From assembly GCA_046744435.1 (NCBI GenBank), contig JBKPFP010000224.1, positions 1-30,483 of the forward strand: a DNA stretch of 30,483 bases. Direction: 5' to 3'. The stretch is from Actinomycetota bacterium. GTDB taxonomy: Bacteria; Actinomycetota; Thermoleophilia; Gaiellales; Gaiellaceae. The translations under genes and the position numbers were made by a program. Position 1 is the stretch's first letter; the number at the start of each line of letters is the position of its first letter. Below are positions 18,849 to 24,842 of the stretch, in pieces. Under the pieces are notes generated by a model. The model searched no databases, was not told the DNA's origin, and saw nothing but the letters and a program-made list of their open reading frames with translations.

Positions 18849-19118
18849 CTAACGCCTGAGGCCCAGCTCCTTGATCAGTGCGCGGTACCCCTCGAGATCG
18901 CGCTTCTGGAAGTAGTTCAGAAGGCGTCGGCGCCGTCCGACGAGCTTGAGCAGCCCGCGGCGGGAATAGTGGTCCTTCGGATGCGCCCGCAAGTGCTCCG
19001 TCAGCTCGTTGATGCGTGTCGTGAGCAGGGCGACCTGGACTTCGGGCGAGCCGGTGTCGCCCTCGGCACGGCCGTGCTTGCCGATGATCTCGAGCTTTGC
19101 TTCTTTCGTAAGGGTCAC
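18849..19118 (-). CDS. rpsO: 30S ribosomal protein S15
   Basis: [39 protein letters not shown]; 89 aa; SD AAGGAAGG. Confidence 0.98.
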
Positions 19119-19208: not shown

Positions 19209-19328
19209 ATAGTTCGTTTTTGGCTCACTTTCGCGGCTGACTCGGTGACTCAACCACACGCGCGTAAGGGCGATGGCATGGCGTGAGGCGTGCTCTTCGT
19301 CACCGAAAGTACGAAGCACTTTCGGTGA

Positions 19329-19351
19329 GTCCGCGGCCCGTGGCCGCGGAC
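19329..19351 (-). terminator. hairpin after the CopD-like gene
   Basis: GTCCGCGGCC-ACG-GGCCGCGGAC immediately after TAA at 19355. Confidence 0.6.
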
Positions 19352-19354
19352 CTC

Positions 19355-20407
19355 TTACGTGTTCACGACCTCCGCGACGTGGCTCAGGATGTGCACGTAC
19401 CGAAGGGCCATGGCCGCGGCCAGGATCGCCGGCACCGTCAGCACGTACACGATGCCCGGCGCGCCGAGGGCGCCGACGAGGGTGCCCACGAGCCCCTGCG
19501 ACGGCTCCGCGCTCCCGTGCGCGAGAGCCGGTGAGGCGGCCGGCACAGGTCGGACGGCCCGCAGCAGCATCGCGGTGCCCGTGCCGAGCAGGACGACGAA
19601 CAGCGCCAGCTTGATGAGCAGGATCCCCTCATACCAGTTCCCGTACGCGATCAGGTCGAGGTCGCTGTCCCAGGGCCAGCGGAGCTTGAACGGCGTGACG
19701 TAGACCATGTTGTAGATCCCGGTCGCGATGATCAGGGGCACGAGTGCCCAGTGGGCCCAGGCGCCCCAGCTGCGATACCAGGCCGAGATGCGCGCGCGGA
19801 TCCCGCTCGTGAGGATCGACGGCGTCGCGAGCGCGATCGTCATCAGGAGGACGCCGATGATCCAGCCCATCGCGGCCAGGCCGTGCACCCAGAGCATGAA
19901 CATCGTCACCCAGTCGCGCTCGGTGACCTTCGTCTCGAGCCGGGTCGGCAGCACCGCCGGGGCGGGCTGGCCCGGAGCGGTCTGGCTCCCCGAGGCGGCA
20001 ACGGCGACCGGCACGTCGAGGGACGCCTTCGCGCCGATGACCTTCGGGCCGCTCACCTCGAACTCCGCCTTCCAGTCGCCCGGCATGACGAACGTGTACG
20101 GCAGCTGGTAGACGCCTGGGCGAGAGGTCTCCGGGATCGTCCGCGGCAGCAGCGTCATGAAGTGCGGCCGCCTCATCTCCGTCCTCACCTCGACGGTCGC
20201 GCCGCGGATCGGCTTGCGGCTGTCGAGATCCGTGAGGCGGACGATGAGCGTGCGGTTGAAGCCCGTGCCCTTGGCCTGCGCCGCGATTCGAGGCTCGGCC
20301 TTTCCGCCCTCGTGCGCAGCAGCCACGGCCGGGGCGGCCGCCGCAACGAGAGCAACTGAAAAGAGAACAGCGAGCTGCCGGATAGAGACTCCTTTACCGC
20401 CGGACAA
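19355..20407 (-). CDS. YtkA/FixH-like extracytoplasmic domain fused to a CopD-like membrane domain
   Basis: Signal peptide then HEGG; GATVEV..EM..PH.M...PGVYQ..YTFVMPGDW (YtkA-like); WVHGLAAMGWIIG, ATGIYN, LLIKLALF (CopD-like). Confidence 0.7.
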   Translation of the reverse strand: MSGGKGVSIRQLAVLFSVALVAAAAPAVAAAHEGGKAEPRIAAQAKGTGFNRTLIVRLTDLDSRKPIRGATVEVRTEMRRPHFMTLLPRTIPETSRPGVYQLPYTFVMPGDWKAEFEVSGPKVIGAKASLDVPVAVAASGSQTAPGQPAPAVLPTRLETKVTERDWVTMFMLWVHGLAAMGWIIGVLLMTIALATPSILTSGIRARISAWYRSWGAWAHWALVPLIIATGIYNMVYVTPFKLRWPWDSDLDLIAYGNWYEGILLIKLALFVVLLGTGTAMLLRAVRPVPAASPALAHGSAEPSQGLVGTLVGALGAPGIVYVLTVPAILAAAMALRYVHILSHVAEVVNT

Positions 20408-20415
20408 GATAGCGC

Positions 20416-20568
20416 TCAGTCCCCGCCGTCCGAGTCCTTGTGGCGCTGCCCGACCCAGTACGCAAGGCCGAGCGCCACGATCGCCAGTGCGCTCGCAATC
20501 TCCACGACCAGGCCGGCCGTGCCGCCGTGGGCCAGAGGCAATCCGGTCAGGGCCGCGAGAGGATCCAC
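20416..20568 (-). CDS. 50-aa single-TM protein
   Basis: SD GGGAGG before GTG; MDPLAALTGLPLAHGGTAGLVVEIASALAIVALGLAYWVGQRHKDSDGGD. Confidence 0.65.
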   Translation of the reverse strand: MDPLAALTGLPLAHGGTAGLVVEIASALAIVALGLAYWVGQRHKDSDGGD

Positions 20569-21896
20569 ATCCCTCCCACCGTGTAGAGCACCATCAGCGC
20601 AAGCATGGCGTACTGCGTCCGCACGGCCGAGCGCGTGGAGCGGGAGAGGCTGAGCGCACGGTCGTGCGCGACGACGAGGCCCAGCACGTGGCCGACGACC
20701 AGCGCCCCCACCTGGACGTACCAGATCGTGCGTGGGTCGATCGACCGATCGGGCTGGAAGTCCCTCGTGCCGAAGAGGTCCCAGCCCGACCCGAACGGGT
20801 CGGAGAACAGGACGATCGCGTTCTGCCCCTCGAGCACGAACAGCGAGAAGTAGTGCGCCACGAGATACGCGAACGCGATCGGGACGAGGCTGCCCAGGAA
20901 GCCCGCGCGTAGCCCTTCGTGCACACCGCCGAGCGCGCGGGCGCCCGCCACGGCCACGAGGTACGTCAGGGCGACGAAGACCGCTGCGGCCCCCAAGGCG
21001 AGCACGGCGAGCGCGAAGACCTCCGGGTCGCTCTTGAGATAGATCTGGTCCTGCCACCAGCGGGTGCGGCTGAGCCCGTCGAACGCGACCGAGCCGAGGG
21101 CGACGGAGACGAGCGCGATCGTCCCGGGACGTGCCTCGAGCCGCGTGAGCCCGGCCAGCGGAGGCCGGATGACGACCTCCCTGCCACCTTCCCGCCAACG
21201 CACGCCGAATGGCGCCATCAGCGCCAGGAGGCCGAAGTACGCGCTGAAGCCGTCGCCGTTCGAGAACCAGGCGTCACGGCCGAATCCGGCCGCGCCCGTC
21301 CACGTCAGCCACGAATAGACGCAGGCTGCGATCGCCACCTTGCGGGGGCTCGAGGGATCCGTGTACGCGAGCTCGAGCGCCGCGAACGAGAAGAGCAGCA
21401 CGGCCGCGGGCCAGCGGCCCAGGCGCGCCGGGTAGTCGAGCGGGGCGCGCCAGCCGCCTCCCAGCCGCTCGCCCGCCCAGGCGGCCGCGTCGGCGACCGC
21501 GCGCCACGGGTTGAGCACGCGCCAGACGTTTCCGAGTAGGACCGAGAGCAAGGGGACGCCGAGCCAGAAGACGACGTACACGAACGTCGGCGCGAGGTTG
21601 AGGAGCGGCGAGTCCTTGCCGACGAGCCCGGCGGCGACGACGAGGACGAACAGCGCGACGCTCGCCGCCCCGAGGGCGACACGGAGCACCCGAGAGAGCA
21701 AGGCCCGCTGCAGGCCGTCCGGCAGCGCGCGCTCGGGAGCGTTCTCCAGCTTCGGGCTCGTCCAGAGCACGCCCAGCGCGACGAACGACAGGACGAGCAC
21801 GAGCGCCGCTCCGTAGTAGAAGAGCCAGCCGGGAACCGGGAGGTCTTTGACCTGGCCGATGCCGTGCGCGAGCACGGCCTCGACGGCGGGGATCAC
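20547..21896 (-). CDS. polytopic membrane protein of the family usually labelled 'fenitrothion hydrolase'
   Basis: LAHGIG..DLPVP.WLF.YGAALVLVLSF; LGSVAFDGL; PIAFAYLVAHYFS; SDPFG.GWDLFGT; GHVLGLVVAHDRAL; QYAMLALMVLYTVGGMW. GTGA-coupled to the upstream gene. Confidence 0.8.
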   Translation of the reverse strand: MIPAVEAVLAHGIGQVKDLPVPGWLFYYGAALVLVLSFVALGVLWTSPKLENAPERALPDGLQRALLSRVLRVALGAASVALFVLVVAAGLVGKDSPLLNLAPTFVYVVFWLGVPLLSVLLGNVWRVLNPWRAVADAAAWAGERLGGGWRAPLDYPARLGRWPAAVLLFSFAALELAYTDPSSPRKVAIAACVYSWLTWTGAAGFGRDAWFSNGDGFSAYFGLLALMAPFGVRWREGGREVVIRPPLAGLTRLEARPGTIALVSVALGSVAFDGLSRTRWWQDQIYLKSDPEVFALAVLALGAAAVFVALTYLVAVAGARALGGVHEGLRAGFLGSLVPIAFAYLVAHYFSLFVLEGQNAIVLFSDPFGSGWDLFGTRDFQPDRSIDPRTIWYVQVGALVVGHVLGLVVAHDRALSLSRSTRSAVRTQYAMLALMVLYTVGGMWILSRP

Positions 21897-22315
21897 GGGG
21901 TGACCGTCAGCTCGGCGATCTGCTCGCCGCTGCCTTCGAACTCGATCTCGAAGCGGCCCGGCTCGTCGGCGCGGAAGTTGAACCCTCCCGGGCGCTCGGC
22001 GGTGACCACCGACTTCAGGTCGTAGCCGTGGAGATGGACTTCCTGGGTGCTGTCGGCAACGACGATGATGATCACGCGCCGGTCCTGCTCGACCGAGATC
22101 CGCTTGATTCCGGGCACCCTCGTGTTGATGCGGAAGACCTGCGGGGTCGGCTCCTGCACGGTCGTGGTGGAGCCGGTCGTCGTCGAGCCGGTCGCCGTCG
22201 GCGTGGTCGCCTGCGCCTGCGAGCCGTTGTCGTCGTCGCCGCGCAAGACGAAGAAGAGCACGACCGCGGCGAACGCGCCGGCGATGAGGATCAAAAGTCG
22301 CAGCGAGGTGCTCAC
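21893..22315 (-). CDS. membrane-anchored cupredoxin-like protein
   Basis: N-terminal TM, Thr-rich linker, EVHLHGYD and ADEPGRFEIE beta-sandwich motifs; no Cys. Confidence 0.7.
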   Translation of the reverse strand: MSTSLRLLILIAGAFAAVVLFFVLRGDDDNGSQAQATTPTATGSTTTGSTTTVQEPTPQVFRINTRVPGIKRISVEQDRRVIIIVVADSTQEVHLHGYDLKSVVTAERPGGFNFRADEPGRFEIEFEGSGEQIAELTVTP

Positions 22316-22354
22316 GAGCGGGAAACGGTAGCGCCCGATTTAACCTCCCTACGC

Positions 22355-23734
22355 ATGCAAGCAATCGCCGCAGGCCATCCCGCCACCGCGGACGCAGGCG
22401 CGGAGATCCTCGCCGAGGGCGGGAGCGCCGCCGACGCCGCGGTCGCCGCCTCGCTCGCGTCGTGCGTCGCCGAGACCGTCATGACGGGGCTGCTCGGAGG
22501 CGGGCACGGGATCTACTTCGACGCCTCTTCCGGCCGCGCTGCCAACCTCGACTGCTTCGTCGCCGTCCCGGGGCTCGGGCGCGAGCGCCGCGACGCGCAG
22601 CTGCTCGAGCTGCAGGTGCCGTTCGGGGCCGAGCTCGTGCACTACGCGGTCGGCATCGCCTCGTGCGGAGTCCCGGGCGTGCCGGCGGGCCTGGACGCGC
22701 TTTGGCGCGAACACGGACGGCTGCCCTGGGCGCGGCTGGTCGAGCCGGCCCTGCGGCTCGCGGCGGGCGGGGTGCGCATGGAGCCGGCGCACGCCGTCTG
22801 CCTGGAGATGCTCGCCGTGGTCATGACGATGAACGAGGGCGAGCGCATCTACTCGCCGTCGGGCTCGCTCCTGCAGACGGGCGACCTCCTGCACCAGCCT
22901 GGTCTCGTCAACGCGCTCGAGGCGCTCGCCGACGAGGGGGCGGCCGCGTTCTACACCGGGACGATCGCGACTGCGCTGATCGATCTGATGGAGGAGCGCG
23001 GCGGCCTCGTCACCGAGCAGGACCTGGCCGAGTATCGCGCCGAGTGGTCGGACCCGCTCGAGCTCGAGTTCCGCGGCCTGGCCGTGGCCACGCGACGCGC
23101 GCTCGGTGACTTCGCGACCGCGCTGGCCGGCCTGTCCCCGCTCCGCGGCCGTCCGGAGCCGGAGCGGGCGCTCGCGCTCGTCGAGGCCCTCGGCGACGAG
23201 ACCGCCGGCCGGGGCACGACGAACCTCGCGGTGCTCGACGGCGACGGCAACACCTGCGTCGTGACGACGAGCCTCGGCCTGGGCTCCGGCGACTTCGTGC
23301 CCGGCTTCGACCTGCACCTCAACTCGATGCTCGGCGAGGCCGACCTCGTCCGCGGTCCGCTCGACCCCGGAAAGCGTCTGCCGAGCATGATGGCGCCGAC
23401 GATCGCGCTGCGCGACGGCCGCGTCGCCCTCGCGGCGGGAGCCGCCGGCGGCACCCGGCTGCGTAGCGCGCTCCTGCAGGTCGTCGCGGGTGTGCTGGAC
23501 GAGGGCATCGGCCTACAGGACGCGATCGACCGCCCGCGGCTCCATCCGGTCGGCCCGACCGTCCACCTCGAGCCCGGGTTTTCCGGCGAGACGACCGCCG
23601 TCCTACGCTCGCACGGCTTCGAGCCGCGCGTGTGGCCCGGCCAGCACCACTACTTCGGCGGCGTGAGCGCGGTTACGCCGACCGGCGCCGCGGGGGATCC
23701 GAGGAGAAGCGGCGACTCGCGAGCCCTGACGTGA
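22355..23734 (+). CDS. gamma-glutamyltransferase family (Ntn hydrolase)
   Basis: GGSAADAAVA, GVPGVPAGL, GTTNLAV nucleophile site, SMMAPT, GAAGG, RPRLH, AGDPRR; no signal peptide. Confidence 0.9.
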   Translation: MQAIAAGHPATADAGAEILAEGGSAADAAVAASLASCVAETVMTGLLGGGHGIYFDASSGRAANLDCFVAVPGLGRERRDAQLLELQVPFGAELVHYAVGIASCGVPGVPAGLDALWREHGRLPWARLVEPALRLAAGGVRMEPAHAVCLEMLAVVMTMNEGERIYSPSGSLLQTGDLLHQPGLVNALEALADEGAAAFYTGTIATALIDLMEERGGLVTEQDLAEYRAEWSDPLELEFRGLAVATRRALGDFATALAGLSPLRGRPEPERALALVEALGDETAGRGTTNLAVLDGDGNTCVVTTSLGLGSGDFVPGFDLHLNSMLGEADLVRGPLDPGKRLPSMMAPTIALRDGRVALAAGAAGGTRLRSALLQVVAGVLDEGIGLQDAIDRPRLHPVGPTVHLEPGFSGETTAVLRSHGFEPRVWPGQHHYFGGVSAVTPTGAAGDPRRSGDSRALT

Positions 23735-23960: not shown

Positions 23961-24842
23961 TCACGCGGCGCCCACTGGCACGGGCCGCTCGGCACGGCGG
24001 GTCTCCTCGACATCGCGGGCGATCTGGGCGACGAGCTCCTCCTCGCTCTCGAACGCCCGTTCCTCGCGGAGCCGGCGCCAGAGCTCGACGATCAGCCGCT
24101 GCCCGTAGAGATCGCCTTCGAAGTCGAGGACGAACGCCTCGATCCGCCGCTCTCGGCCGCCGTAGTGCGGGTTCGTGCCGATCGAGACCGCGGCGCGGTG
24201 CTCCAGAACGCTCCCCGCGTAAATGCCGAAGGACGGCACGACCAGGTCCGGCCGCACGGAGAGGTTCGCGGTGGGGAAGCCGAGCGTGCCGCCGCGGGCG
24301 TTGCCGGCCACGACGATCCCTTCGACCTCGACCGGCCGGCCGAGCAGGCCTGCTGCCGCCTCGACCGCGCCGTCGGCGACGAGCTCGCGGATGCGAGACG
24401 AGGAGACGCCCTCGAGGAGAGGCACCGCCCGGATCTCGAAGCCGAGCTGGGAAAGCAGCTCGAGGTCGCCCTTGCGACCGTGACCGAAGCGGAAGTCCTC
24501 GCCCGCGACGACGACCTCGGCGCCCAGCGGGCGCAGGATTCGATCGGCGAACTCGTCCGGCTCGAGCCGCGCGAGGTCGAGGGTGAACTCCACGACCAGG
24601 GTCTCGTCGCTGCCGGTCTCGGCGATCAGCTCCAGGCGGCGCTCGAGCGTGGAGAGCAGCGCCACGAAGTTCCCGAGCGCCGTGCGCGGGTGCGGGTCGA
24701 AGGTGACGACCGTGGACGTGAGCCCGGTCTCGCGCGCGGCCGCGAGCACGCGCTGGTGGCCGAGGTGGACGCCGTCGAAGGTGCCGAGCGCAACGGCCCG
24801 CGGCCCGGGGCCGAGCTCGTCGGGCGAGCGGGCGACCTTCAC
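23961..24842 (-). CDS. ribF: bifunctional riboflavin kinase/FAD synthetase
   Basis: GTFDGVHLGH, TFDPHP, GEDFRFG, VSSSRIR, GGTLGFPTAN, IEAFVLDF, LREERAF. Confidence 0.97.
   Translation of the reverse strand: MKVARSPDELGPGPRAVALGTFDGVHLGHQRVLAAARETGLTSTVVTFDPHPRTALGNFVALLSTLERRLELIAETGSDETLVVEFTLDLARLEPDEFADRILRPLGAEVVVAGEDFRFGHGRKGDLELLSQLGFEIRAVPLLEGVSSSRIRELVADGAVEAAAGLLGRPVEVEGIVVAGNARGGTLGFPTANLSVRPDLVVPSFGIYAGSVLEHRAAVSIGTNPHYGGRERRIEAFVLDFEGDLYGQRLIVELWRRLREERAFESEEELVAQIARDVEETRRAERPVPVGAA

Follow-up and report, generated by a model that had tools for sequence, protein, structure and literature searches.

Which process brings together a cupredoxin-fold protein, a ten-helix membrane protein, a 50-residue single-pass protein and a YtkA-CopD-like fusion in one compact operon? 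This question is raised by four genes, here called g1 to g4 (Table 1), on contig JBKPFP010000224.1 of assembly GCA_046744435.1, which we analyzed as a stretch of 30,483 nucleotides (nt), hereafter the window. The host is a Gaiellaceae-type actinobacterium of ~70% GC, represented by a metagenome-assembled genome that is 76% complete, and the stretch is present in several soil metagenomes.

We lean towards the view that the four genes form an envelope copper-trafficking operon for cuproenzyme maturation, chiefly of aa3-type cytochrome c oxidases encoded elsewhere. A preliminary description, made from the sequence of the window alone, had proposed a role in copper acquisition or delivery on the basis of domain resemblance and His/Met motifs. 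Support for such a role is indirect, coming from gene neighborhoods, from natural fusions and from what has been published on the functions of CtaK and CopD. The gene structure, folds, domain families, conservation, adjacency, neighborhoods and fusions reported below are shown by the present analysis.

Folds and conserved residues of the four proteins

The early domain calls, a cupredoxin-like g1, a polytopic g2, a single-pass g3 and a YtkA-CopD-type g4, agree with the structural models and family profiles. g1 has an N-terminal transmembrane (TM) anchor, a Thr/Pro-rich linker and an extracytoplasmic β domain of ~80 amino acids (aa), and its AlphaFold2 (AF2) model reaches a predicted local distance difference test (pLDDT) of 88, rising to ~98 within the β domain. 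Foldseek matched the model against the PDB with a probability of 1.00 to the CuA domains of N2OR and COX2, to NirK and to FtrB (8vuk, TM-score 0.68 by target). Matches among the Swiss-Prot models agree with a cupredoxin fold, the domain is a Greek-key β-sandwich as in cupredoxins, and Pfam Cupredoxin_1 is matched by 9 of 37 g1 relatives.

The invariant residues of g1 (alignment A3) occur in two regions, H94, H96, G97, Y98 and D99 in a HxHGYD motif, and G120, F122, E123, E125 and E127 around a FExExE motif. Cys is absent from the whole sequence, and neither Cys nor Met is found among the conserved columns of A3. The combination of Cys with His (and Met) ligands that type-1 or CuA cupredoxins carry in the C-terminal loop is therefore not found in g1, and since the Cys ligand is absent, the site is neither type-1 nor CuA. 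FtrB (8vuk) was not among the matches of the A3 profile in PDB sequences up to an E-value of 10, the likeness between the two proteins being structural only.

g2 is modeled as ~10 long helices (AF2 pLDDT 94) and matches no Pfam and no NCBIfam family. It is a full-length member of a family of 4790 representative clusters at 50% identity, with TM-scores of 0.93-0.94 to clusters of that family in the Atlas, and it occurs in 94 of the 401 Actinomycetota genomes sampled. Fold searches (Foldseek against the PDB, VIA-align wide) yielded nothing beyond generic helical bundles (E>0.01, Z<8), which are insufficient to name or exclude any family. The conserved residues are A10-H11, E175, D273, A347-H348-Y349, S365-D366-P367, G402-H403 and H411; there is no Cys among the conserved positions or elsewhere in the sequence. 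Helix order, secondary structure and the positive-inside rule, the only basis for the topology, suggest that H11, E175, D273 and D366 face outward and that H348, H403 and H411 lie inside helices.

The A-H-G position of the g2 family is occupied by His in 249 of the 252 members having a residue there. A signal-peptide-like segment ending in A-x-A precedes this His in 96 of those 249 members, so that the mature g2 homologue would start with His. The clade of the window has lost the signal peptide, and ~10 residues remain before the conserved His (MIPAVEAVLA before HG, positions 21867-21896). In databases the g2 family carries the label 'fenitrothion hydrolase'. We did not locate a primary study behind this label in a title- and abstract-level literature search, and we regard it as doubtful, being widely propagated without support that we could trace.

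g3 has an L-A-H-G-G sequence near its N-terminus, in which H14 and G16 are invariant; after E21 comes a single TM helix, and the tail is basic/acidic. Of 119 loci examined, 43, belonging to several families, have a mini-ORF (open reading frame) of this type after g2 (alignment A6). Its start lies between 1 and 31 nt ahead of the g2 stop or a few nt beyond it, and its product combines the pattern [AG]-H-[GQAH]-[GA] with a single TM helix and a tail rich in Arg. g3 is thus a real conserved gene and not a chance ORF. It matches no Pfam family at E<=1, and hence neither FixS nor CcoS. The sequence before A-H-G-G is short and hydrophobic, similar to that of g2 in this clade. A C-terminal cytoplasmic CxxC...CxxC zinc ribbon is present in g3-type proteins of several families (L123, L128, L105, L129, L114, L098, L133 and L005). 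A prediction of the complex of g2 and g3 (alignments A2 and A6) gave a score of 0.00, which is uninformative either way.

The signal peptide of g4 ends in A-x-A directly before H32, a residue kept in 27 of 29 relatives, and judging from the sequence, mature g4 probably begins with this His. An A-H-(G/E)-G motif is common to three extracytoplasmic N-termini, those of g2, g3 and g4. The first domain of g4 scores 26.2 bits against the YtkA profile (cut-off 25.9), which all 29 relatives match (best E-value 5.7e-8), and its invariant residues are M78, P81, H82 and M84, in a MxxPHxM motif, together with M108 (alignment A1). It is the sole YtkA domain found so far in the genome of the window. No lipobox Cys is present, and g4 is anchored by its C-terminal TM helices. 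These form a bundle that contains H175, H219, H339 and H343; CopD is matched at E<=0.01 by 23 of the 29 relatives (best 2.3e-6), and hhalign aligned g4 with the CopC-CopD protein of its own genome at an E-value of 0.005, with a shared W-V-H-x-x-A-A-x-x-W-I motif that includes H175. FixH is matched by only 4 of the 29 relatives, and hhalign found no relationship of g4 to Caa3_CtaG.

Gene association and copper context

The gene directly upstream of g2 is g1 in 23 of the 29 loci taken from across the phylum and in ~56 of 80 Thermoleophilia loci. Related genomes are present among the loci and genomes counted here and below, and the counts overstate independence accordingly. The order of all four genes recurs in three loci (L001, L038 and L079, g2 68-70% identical), and g4 adjoins g2 only in these closest relatives, corresponding to 2 of the 80 Thermoleophilia loci plus L001. 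It follows that g1-g2(-g3) is the conserved unit, a core found across Actinomycetota, and that g4 is a lineage-specific addition; the co-occurrence expected in the preliminary description thus applies to g1-g2-g3 across the phylum but not to g4. The block formed by the four genes and a divergent γ-glutamyltranspeptidase gene (GGT; block 19355-23734) is inserted in the infB-rbfA-truB-ribF / rpsO-pnp cluster only in the same three loci besides the window, and all other Thermoleophilia loci have g1-g2 elsewhere. In other Gaiellaceae the triad is found directly upstream of rplM-rpsI-glmM-glmS, or beside gatA, serA or aldehyde dehydrogenase genes.

Copper and oxidase genes recur around the core. 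In a phylum-wide set of 40 diverse g1-g2 loci, we observe Caa3_CtaG 5 times, Sco1 4 times, COX3 3 times, and COX1 and COX2 (COX2-cytochrome c) twice each, with Caa3_CtaG directly after g2 once (L024). A cox, sco or ctaG gene is present within 6 kb in 8 of the 40 loci, from at least 5 families, compared with a few percent at most expected by chance, by our own rough estimate. In the Thermoleophilia set such a neighbor is found in only 3 of 80 loci. A PCuAC match lies ~3 kb from g2 in genome G377 (locus L147).

Natural fusions show the same association. A g2-like domain is fused to Caa3_CtaG in 100% of the members of a Planctomycetota cluster of the Atlas, and another Atlas cluster combines such a domain with Fer4_5 and COX2; the g2-like domains of these clusters have TM-scores of 0.81-0.86. 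A g2 fusion in the AlphaFold database (AFDB) carries the name 'cytochrome aa3 subunit 2', and one g2 homologue (P0309) is fused to a Cu/Zn superoxide dismutase. Distant g4 homologues, 51-59% identical, are located in copper clusters, one of which (L120) contains Cupredoxin_1, CcdA, TlpA-like, Sco1, an ArsR regulator, a P-type ATPase, a CDF transporter and Cu-oxidase_2, and another (L119) a copper amine oxidase.

The preliminary description had also proposed profiling against heme-copper oxidases; among the 401 sampled genomes, COX1 is present in 85 of 94 g2-positive genomes and in 162 of 307 g2-negative ones. This tally includes five genomes flagged as unpublished, all g2-negative and COX1-positive (G001, G048, G120, G336 and G088), without which the second count is 157 of 302. 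One family departs from this pattern, as discussed below. The genome of the window has two COX operons elsewhere. No PCuAC match was found in the genome of the window, and PCuAC was absent from the three searched genomes of its family, which fits a CtaK-type route.

Several other genes were observed around these loci. In the genome of the window, a canonical CopC-CopD fusion of 595 aa (L002:1435-3222) on contig C417 adjoins Caa3_CtaG (C417:6397-7032). A lipoprotein of ~320-350 aa, with an N-terminal β domain, a thioredoxin-like C-terminal domain (C-x4-C) and no Pfam family, stands beside g1-g2 in 4 loci of the phylum-wide set of 40 and in 9 of the Thermoleophilia set of 80 (L137:3498-4457, L123:7441-8487, L128:7952-8896, L144:4989-5978 and L005:7760-8722). 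A polytopic membrane protein of ~610-650 aa without a Pfam family always precedes g1-g2 in f40, a family of large-genome actinobacteria (L153, L155, L158-L160), and a ~185-aa, His-bearing protein with four TM helices is encoded just upstream of g1 at L123:4823-5383 and L133:7849-8400, and also in L129 and L105. One g2 homologue (P0251) is fused to a BNR/Ycf48-like β-propeller, and propellers weakly similar to it (~29% identity, E-value 1e-7) are encoded near distant g4 homologues (L119:2798-3769 and L120:1207-2157). Distant g4 homologues are also preceded, with a 4-nt overlap, by a TM-anchored extracytoplasmic protein of 336 aa (L118:4994-6004 and L120:4994-6004), which is unrelated to g1, g2 and g4 and has no Pfam family. 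The triad lies upstream of rplM-rpsI-glmM-glmS in L039, L042, L043, L047, L050-L052 and L058, and was placed just before ribosomal-protein genes twice independently, in this rplM group and at rpsO in the window.

Gene layout and transcript ends

The coordinates of the four ORFs (Table 1) bear out the tight packing reported earlier, with a 4-nt overlap between g1 and g2, a 22-nt overlap between g2 and g3, and an 8-nt gap between g3 and g4. All four genes are conserved, with more than 6000 word-index matches for g2, 212 for g4 and 221 for g1. The operon had been placed between ribF and rpsO. This is correct on the downstream side, where g4 is followed by rpsO and then pnp, but the operon is not directly flanked by ribF, because the divergent GGT gene intervenes between g1 and ribF.

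A terminator hairpin had also been described after g4. We find two tandem hairpins, beginning 3 nt past the g4 stop, with a folding free energy (dG) of -46.6 kcal/mol and a z of -5.4 versus shuffled sequences. The pair has no U-tract and was not called by a consensus terminator scan; it is probably a transcript end or a stabilizer upstream of rpsO. At the other end of the operon, we found no Shine-Dalgarno sequence at a usable distance from the g1 start and no sigma-70 consensus in the 39-nt region between the divergent genes. The operon transcripts may be leaderless.

Table 1 Features of the four-gene operon and its surroundings in the window (positions in nt).
Feature	Position	Strand	Size or extent	Basis or remark
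g1	21893-22315	-	140 aa	ORF table and translation
g2	20547-21896	-	449 aa	ORF table and translation
g3	20416-20568	-	50 aa	ORF table and translation
g4	19355-20407	-	350 aa	ORF table and translation
g4, YtkA/CtaK-type immunoglobulin (Ig)-like domain	20069-20251		aa 53-113	Pfam PF13115
g4, CopD-like bundle of 4 TM helices	19511-19774 (Pfam CopD match)		aa ~165-350	Pfam PF05425
Two tandem GC-rich perfect hairpins	19301-19352	-		Folding, z versus shuffles
Divergent intergenic region	22316-22354		39 nt	Between g1 GTG start and GGT ATG start
GGT	22355-23734	+		Pfam E-value 1.4e-78
ribF	23961-24842
rpsO	18849-19118

Related systems and competing explanations

The closest known parts are found in Bacillus. 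YtkA of Bacillus, renamed CtaK, is a lipoprotein required with Sco for CuA assembly, and in YcnJ the CopD His and the YtkA domain support Qox and Cta, two oxidases, when copper is scarce (PMC9145763, PMC13344008). g4 resembles CtaK and YcnJ (CopC-CopD-YtkA) of B. subtilis in its YtkA and CopD families, in the conserved His and Met residues of the YtkA domain and in a TM His within a CopD-type motif. It differs from YcnJ by the reversed domain order, with YtkA N-terminal, by the lack of a CopC domain, by having ~4 helices and by a CopD score below the Pfam cut-off, and from CtaK by being held by TM helices instead of a lipid. CtaK needs His118 for function, and the invariant M78, H82, M84 and M108 of g4 are candidates for a corresponding site. 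H175 of g4, a candidate counterpart of the TM His that YcnJ (H295) and YebZ require for copper uptake, aligns with the CopD motif of its own genome. g4 is a rearranged relative of these known parts, CtaK and the CopD of YcnJ. Bacillus, as described in the cited papers, does not have g1-g2-g3, while g4 is encoded together with them.

An actinobacterial case of membrane copper insertion into the aa3 oxidase is CtiP of C. glutamicum, a fusion of CopD and Caa3_CtaG that acts with CopC (Cg1884) and PCuAC (Cg1883). The CopC-CopD protein beside Caa3_CtaG on contig C417 resembles a split version of Corynebacterium CtiP, whereas none of the tests that we ran showed g2 to be a homologue of CtaG or CopD. 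The operon also resembles CopC/CopD of P. syringae and YobA-YebZ-YebY of E. coli, which pair an extracytoplasmic copper-binding domain with a His-bearing membrane protein, and the predicted N-terminal His of the mature proteins is a CopC-like feature; nevertheless, no CopC fold is present, g1 being a cupredoxin and g2 an unrelated 10-helix fold.

The parallel with ccoGHIS drawn in the preliminary description is only loose. The cast is similar, comprising a polytopic protein, a FixH/YtkA-like Ig-domain protein and a tiny TM protein, but the parallel failed every membership test tried (CcoG, CcoS/FixS, CcoH/FixH and CcoI). CcoG carries Fer4_5, which among relatives of g2 is found only in distant structural ones; g2 has no Fe-S Cys residues, g3 has no FixS match, the operon has no P-type ATPase, and the oxidases of the genome and of the neighborhoods are of the COX1/2/3 type. 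The aa3/caa3 copper pathway of Bacillus and Corynebacterium (CtaK, YcnJ, CtaG/CtiP and Sco) is the better parallel. Envelope copper delivery to oxidases is already known as a process, whereas the g1-g2-g3 core has no characterized counterpart, no Pfam model and no match to a solved fold. For this core, the earlier statement that no characterized system has such a composition is correct.

We propose the following route, in which we infer the metal, the direction of transport, the physical contacts and the client enzyme. Copper would be captured outside the cell by the His-bearing N-termini and by the acidic/His patch of g1, a membrane-tethered Cys-less cupredoxin with a surface site of two His and one Asp plus three Glu. 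At the outer ends of its helices g2 would expose acidic residues along with its N-terminal His, with further His inside the membrane, and g3 would repeat the A-H-G-G motif at the outer face. Copper might then move across or along the membrane via the intramembrane His of g2 and g4, and the CtaK-like domain of g4, the fourth gene added in this Gaiellaceae sublineage, would deliver it to oxidase subunits at their CuA/CuB sites, in parallel with the CopC-CopD/CtaG system that other loci of the genome encode. A more specific proposal, plausible but one we hold more tentatively, is that g1-g2-g3 constitutes a hitherto unrecognized membrane copper conduit or insertase, whose parts would be a Cys-less cupredoxin, a 10-helix protein with a new fold and an N-terminal His resembling a histidine brace, and a mini-subunit in which the motif recurs. 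A quarter of Actinomycetota would use it for cuproenzyme maturation, with structural relatives fused to CtaG or COX2 in other phyla, and in the lineage of the window it would be wired directly to a CtaK-CopD relay.

Several observations weigh against assigning the operon to copper delivery. g1 has neither the Cys nor the Met ligands of type-1 and CuA sites. Its ExExE strand is similar to the Fe/Mn site found in FtrB, and together with the His/Asp site leaves some probability for a role in iron. The CopD match of g4 reaches 21.2 bits where the cut-off is 32.1, and the bundle has 4 helices and not 8. Since g4 adjoins g2 only in the nearest relatives, their linkage is of recent date and may be incidental. 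Housekeeping genes, for instance rplM-rpsI-glmM-glmS, gatA and serA, surround ~90% of the g1-g2 loci. One family (f19) retains g2 with no COX1 match or only a weak one (E-value ~1e-56), and with neighbors unrelated to copper. PCuAC, finally, is present in 15 of 94 g2-positive and 49 of 307 g2-negative genomes, with no clear complementarity.

Part of this evidence would also fit two unrelated modules, in which g4 is a copper protein, g1-g2-g3 a housekeeping envelope module for another substrate or for membrane-protein biogenesis, and their union a recent accident of insertion in the ribF-rpsO gap. Such an arrangement would account for the rare adjacency of g4 and g2, the restriction of the GGT and four-gene block at the ribF-rpsO position to the closest relatives, the mostly housekeeping context of g1-g2, and the persistence of g2 in f19 genomes without canonical COX1. 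We nevertheless consider it unlikely, given the tight 8-nt g3/g4 junction, the motif common to three N-termini, and the copper and oxidase links that g2 has on its own through fusions and neighbors. The intramembrane His residues H348, H403 and H411, conserved within helices, could point to another function for g2, a transmembrane redox device that binds a cofactor such as heme and exchanges electrons with g1. In that role g2 would be a metal reductase or oxidase, similar to CcoG, a cupric reductase. The cupredoxin fold of g1 is compatible with this, as are structural relatives of g2 in other phyla that carry Fer4_5 (4Fe-4S) and one AFDB relative named FAD-dependent oxidoreductase. g2, on the other hand, has no Cys and no recognized heme or Fe-S motif, its fold matched no known heme membrane protein in the searches above, and the ligands of electron-transfer copper sites are missing from g1, which makes such a device quite improbable.

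The resemblance of g1 to FtrB raises the question of iron. FtrB binds an Fe2+ mimic via E84, E86 and E93, and Cu2+ via D118 and H121 (PMC11966278). Like g1, FtrB (the Cup-II protein of the FtrABCD system) and the Cup domain at the N-terminus of EfeO are Cys-less cupredoxin folds with Glu-x-Glu and His/Asp metal sites, and they work with a membrane permease; g1 combines its ExExE strand with HxHGYD. One could thus envisage Fe2+ oxidation and uptake on the logic of FtrABCD or EfeUOB, with g1 as a Cup-II-type ferroxidase, matching FtrB at the TM-score given above, and g2 as the permease. FtrABCD and EfeUOB are iron systems, however, with which g1 shares no significant sequence similarity and whose membrane partner and neighbors differ; an Ftr1/EfeU-type permease, P19 and EfeB were not seen among the annotated neighbors, whereas neighbors and fusions indicate copper and oxidase genes and g4 is CtaK/CopD-like. 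We rate an iron role as slightly less probable still than the redox device. A membrane hydrolase, as implied by the name 'fenitrothion hydrolase', is very improbable: the propagated name is its only support, even if a catalytic site built from the conserved His, Asp and Ser is conceivable in principle, and it sits poorly with a family so widespread in Actinomycetota and often in housekeeping positions, with the pairing of g2 with a cupredoxin-fold protein, and with structure searches that matched no hydrolase fold.

The copper-trafficking operon that we favor would bear on a route that is only partly known, that of copper to the CuA/CuB sites of actinobacterial oxidases; according to reviews, not all assembly factors have been identified yet (PMC9145763). 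Thousands of sequence clusters, besides its presence in nearly a quarter of the sampled genomes (94/401), show that the g1-g2-g3 module is common, yet it has no Pfam model or solved structure. Finding it in the same operon as a CtaK/CopD-type protein turns the question of its function into a concrete hypothesis that can be tested. Even if this hypothesis is wrong, the widely propagated 'fenitrothion hydrolase' annotation is flagged as doubtful; if it is true, a new membrane protein family and a new type of Cys-less cupredoxin would take part in bacterial copper trafficking.

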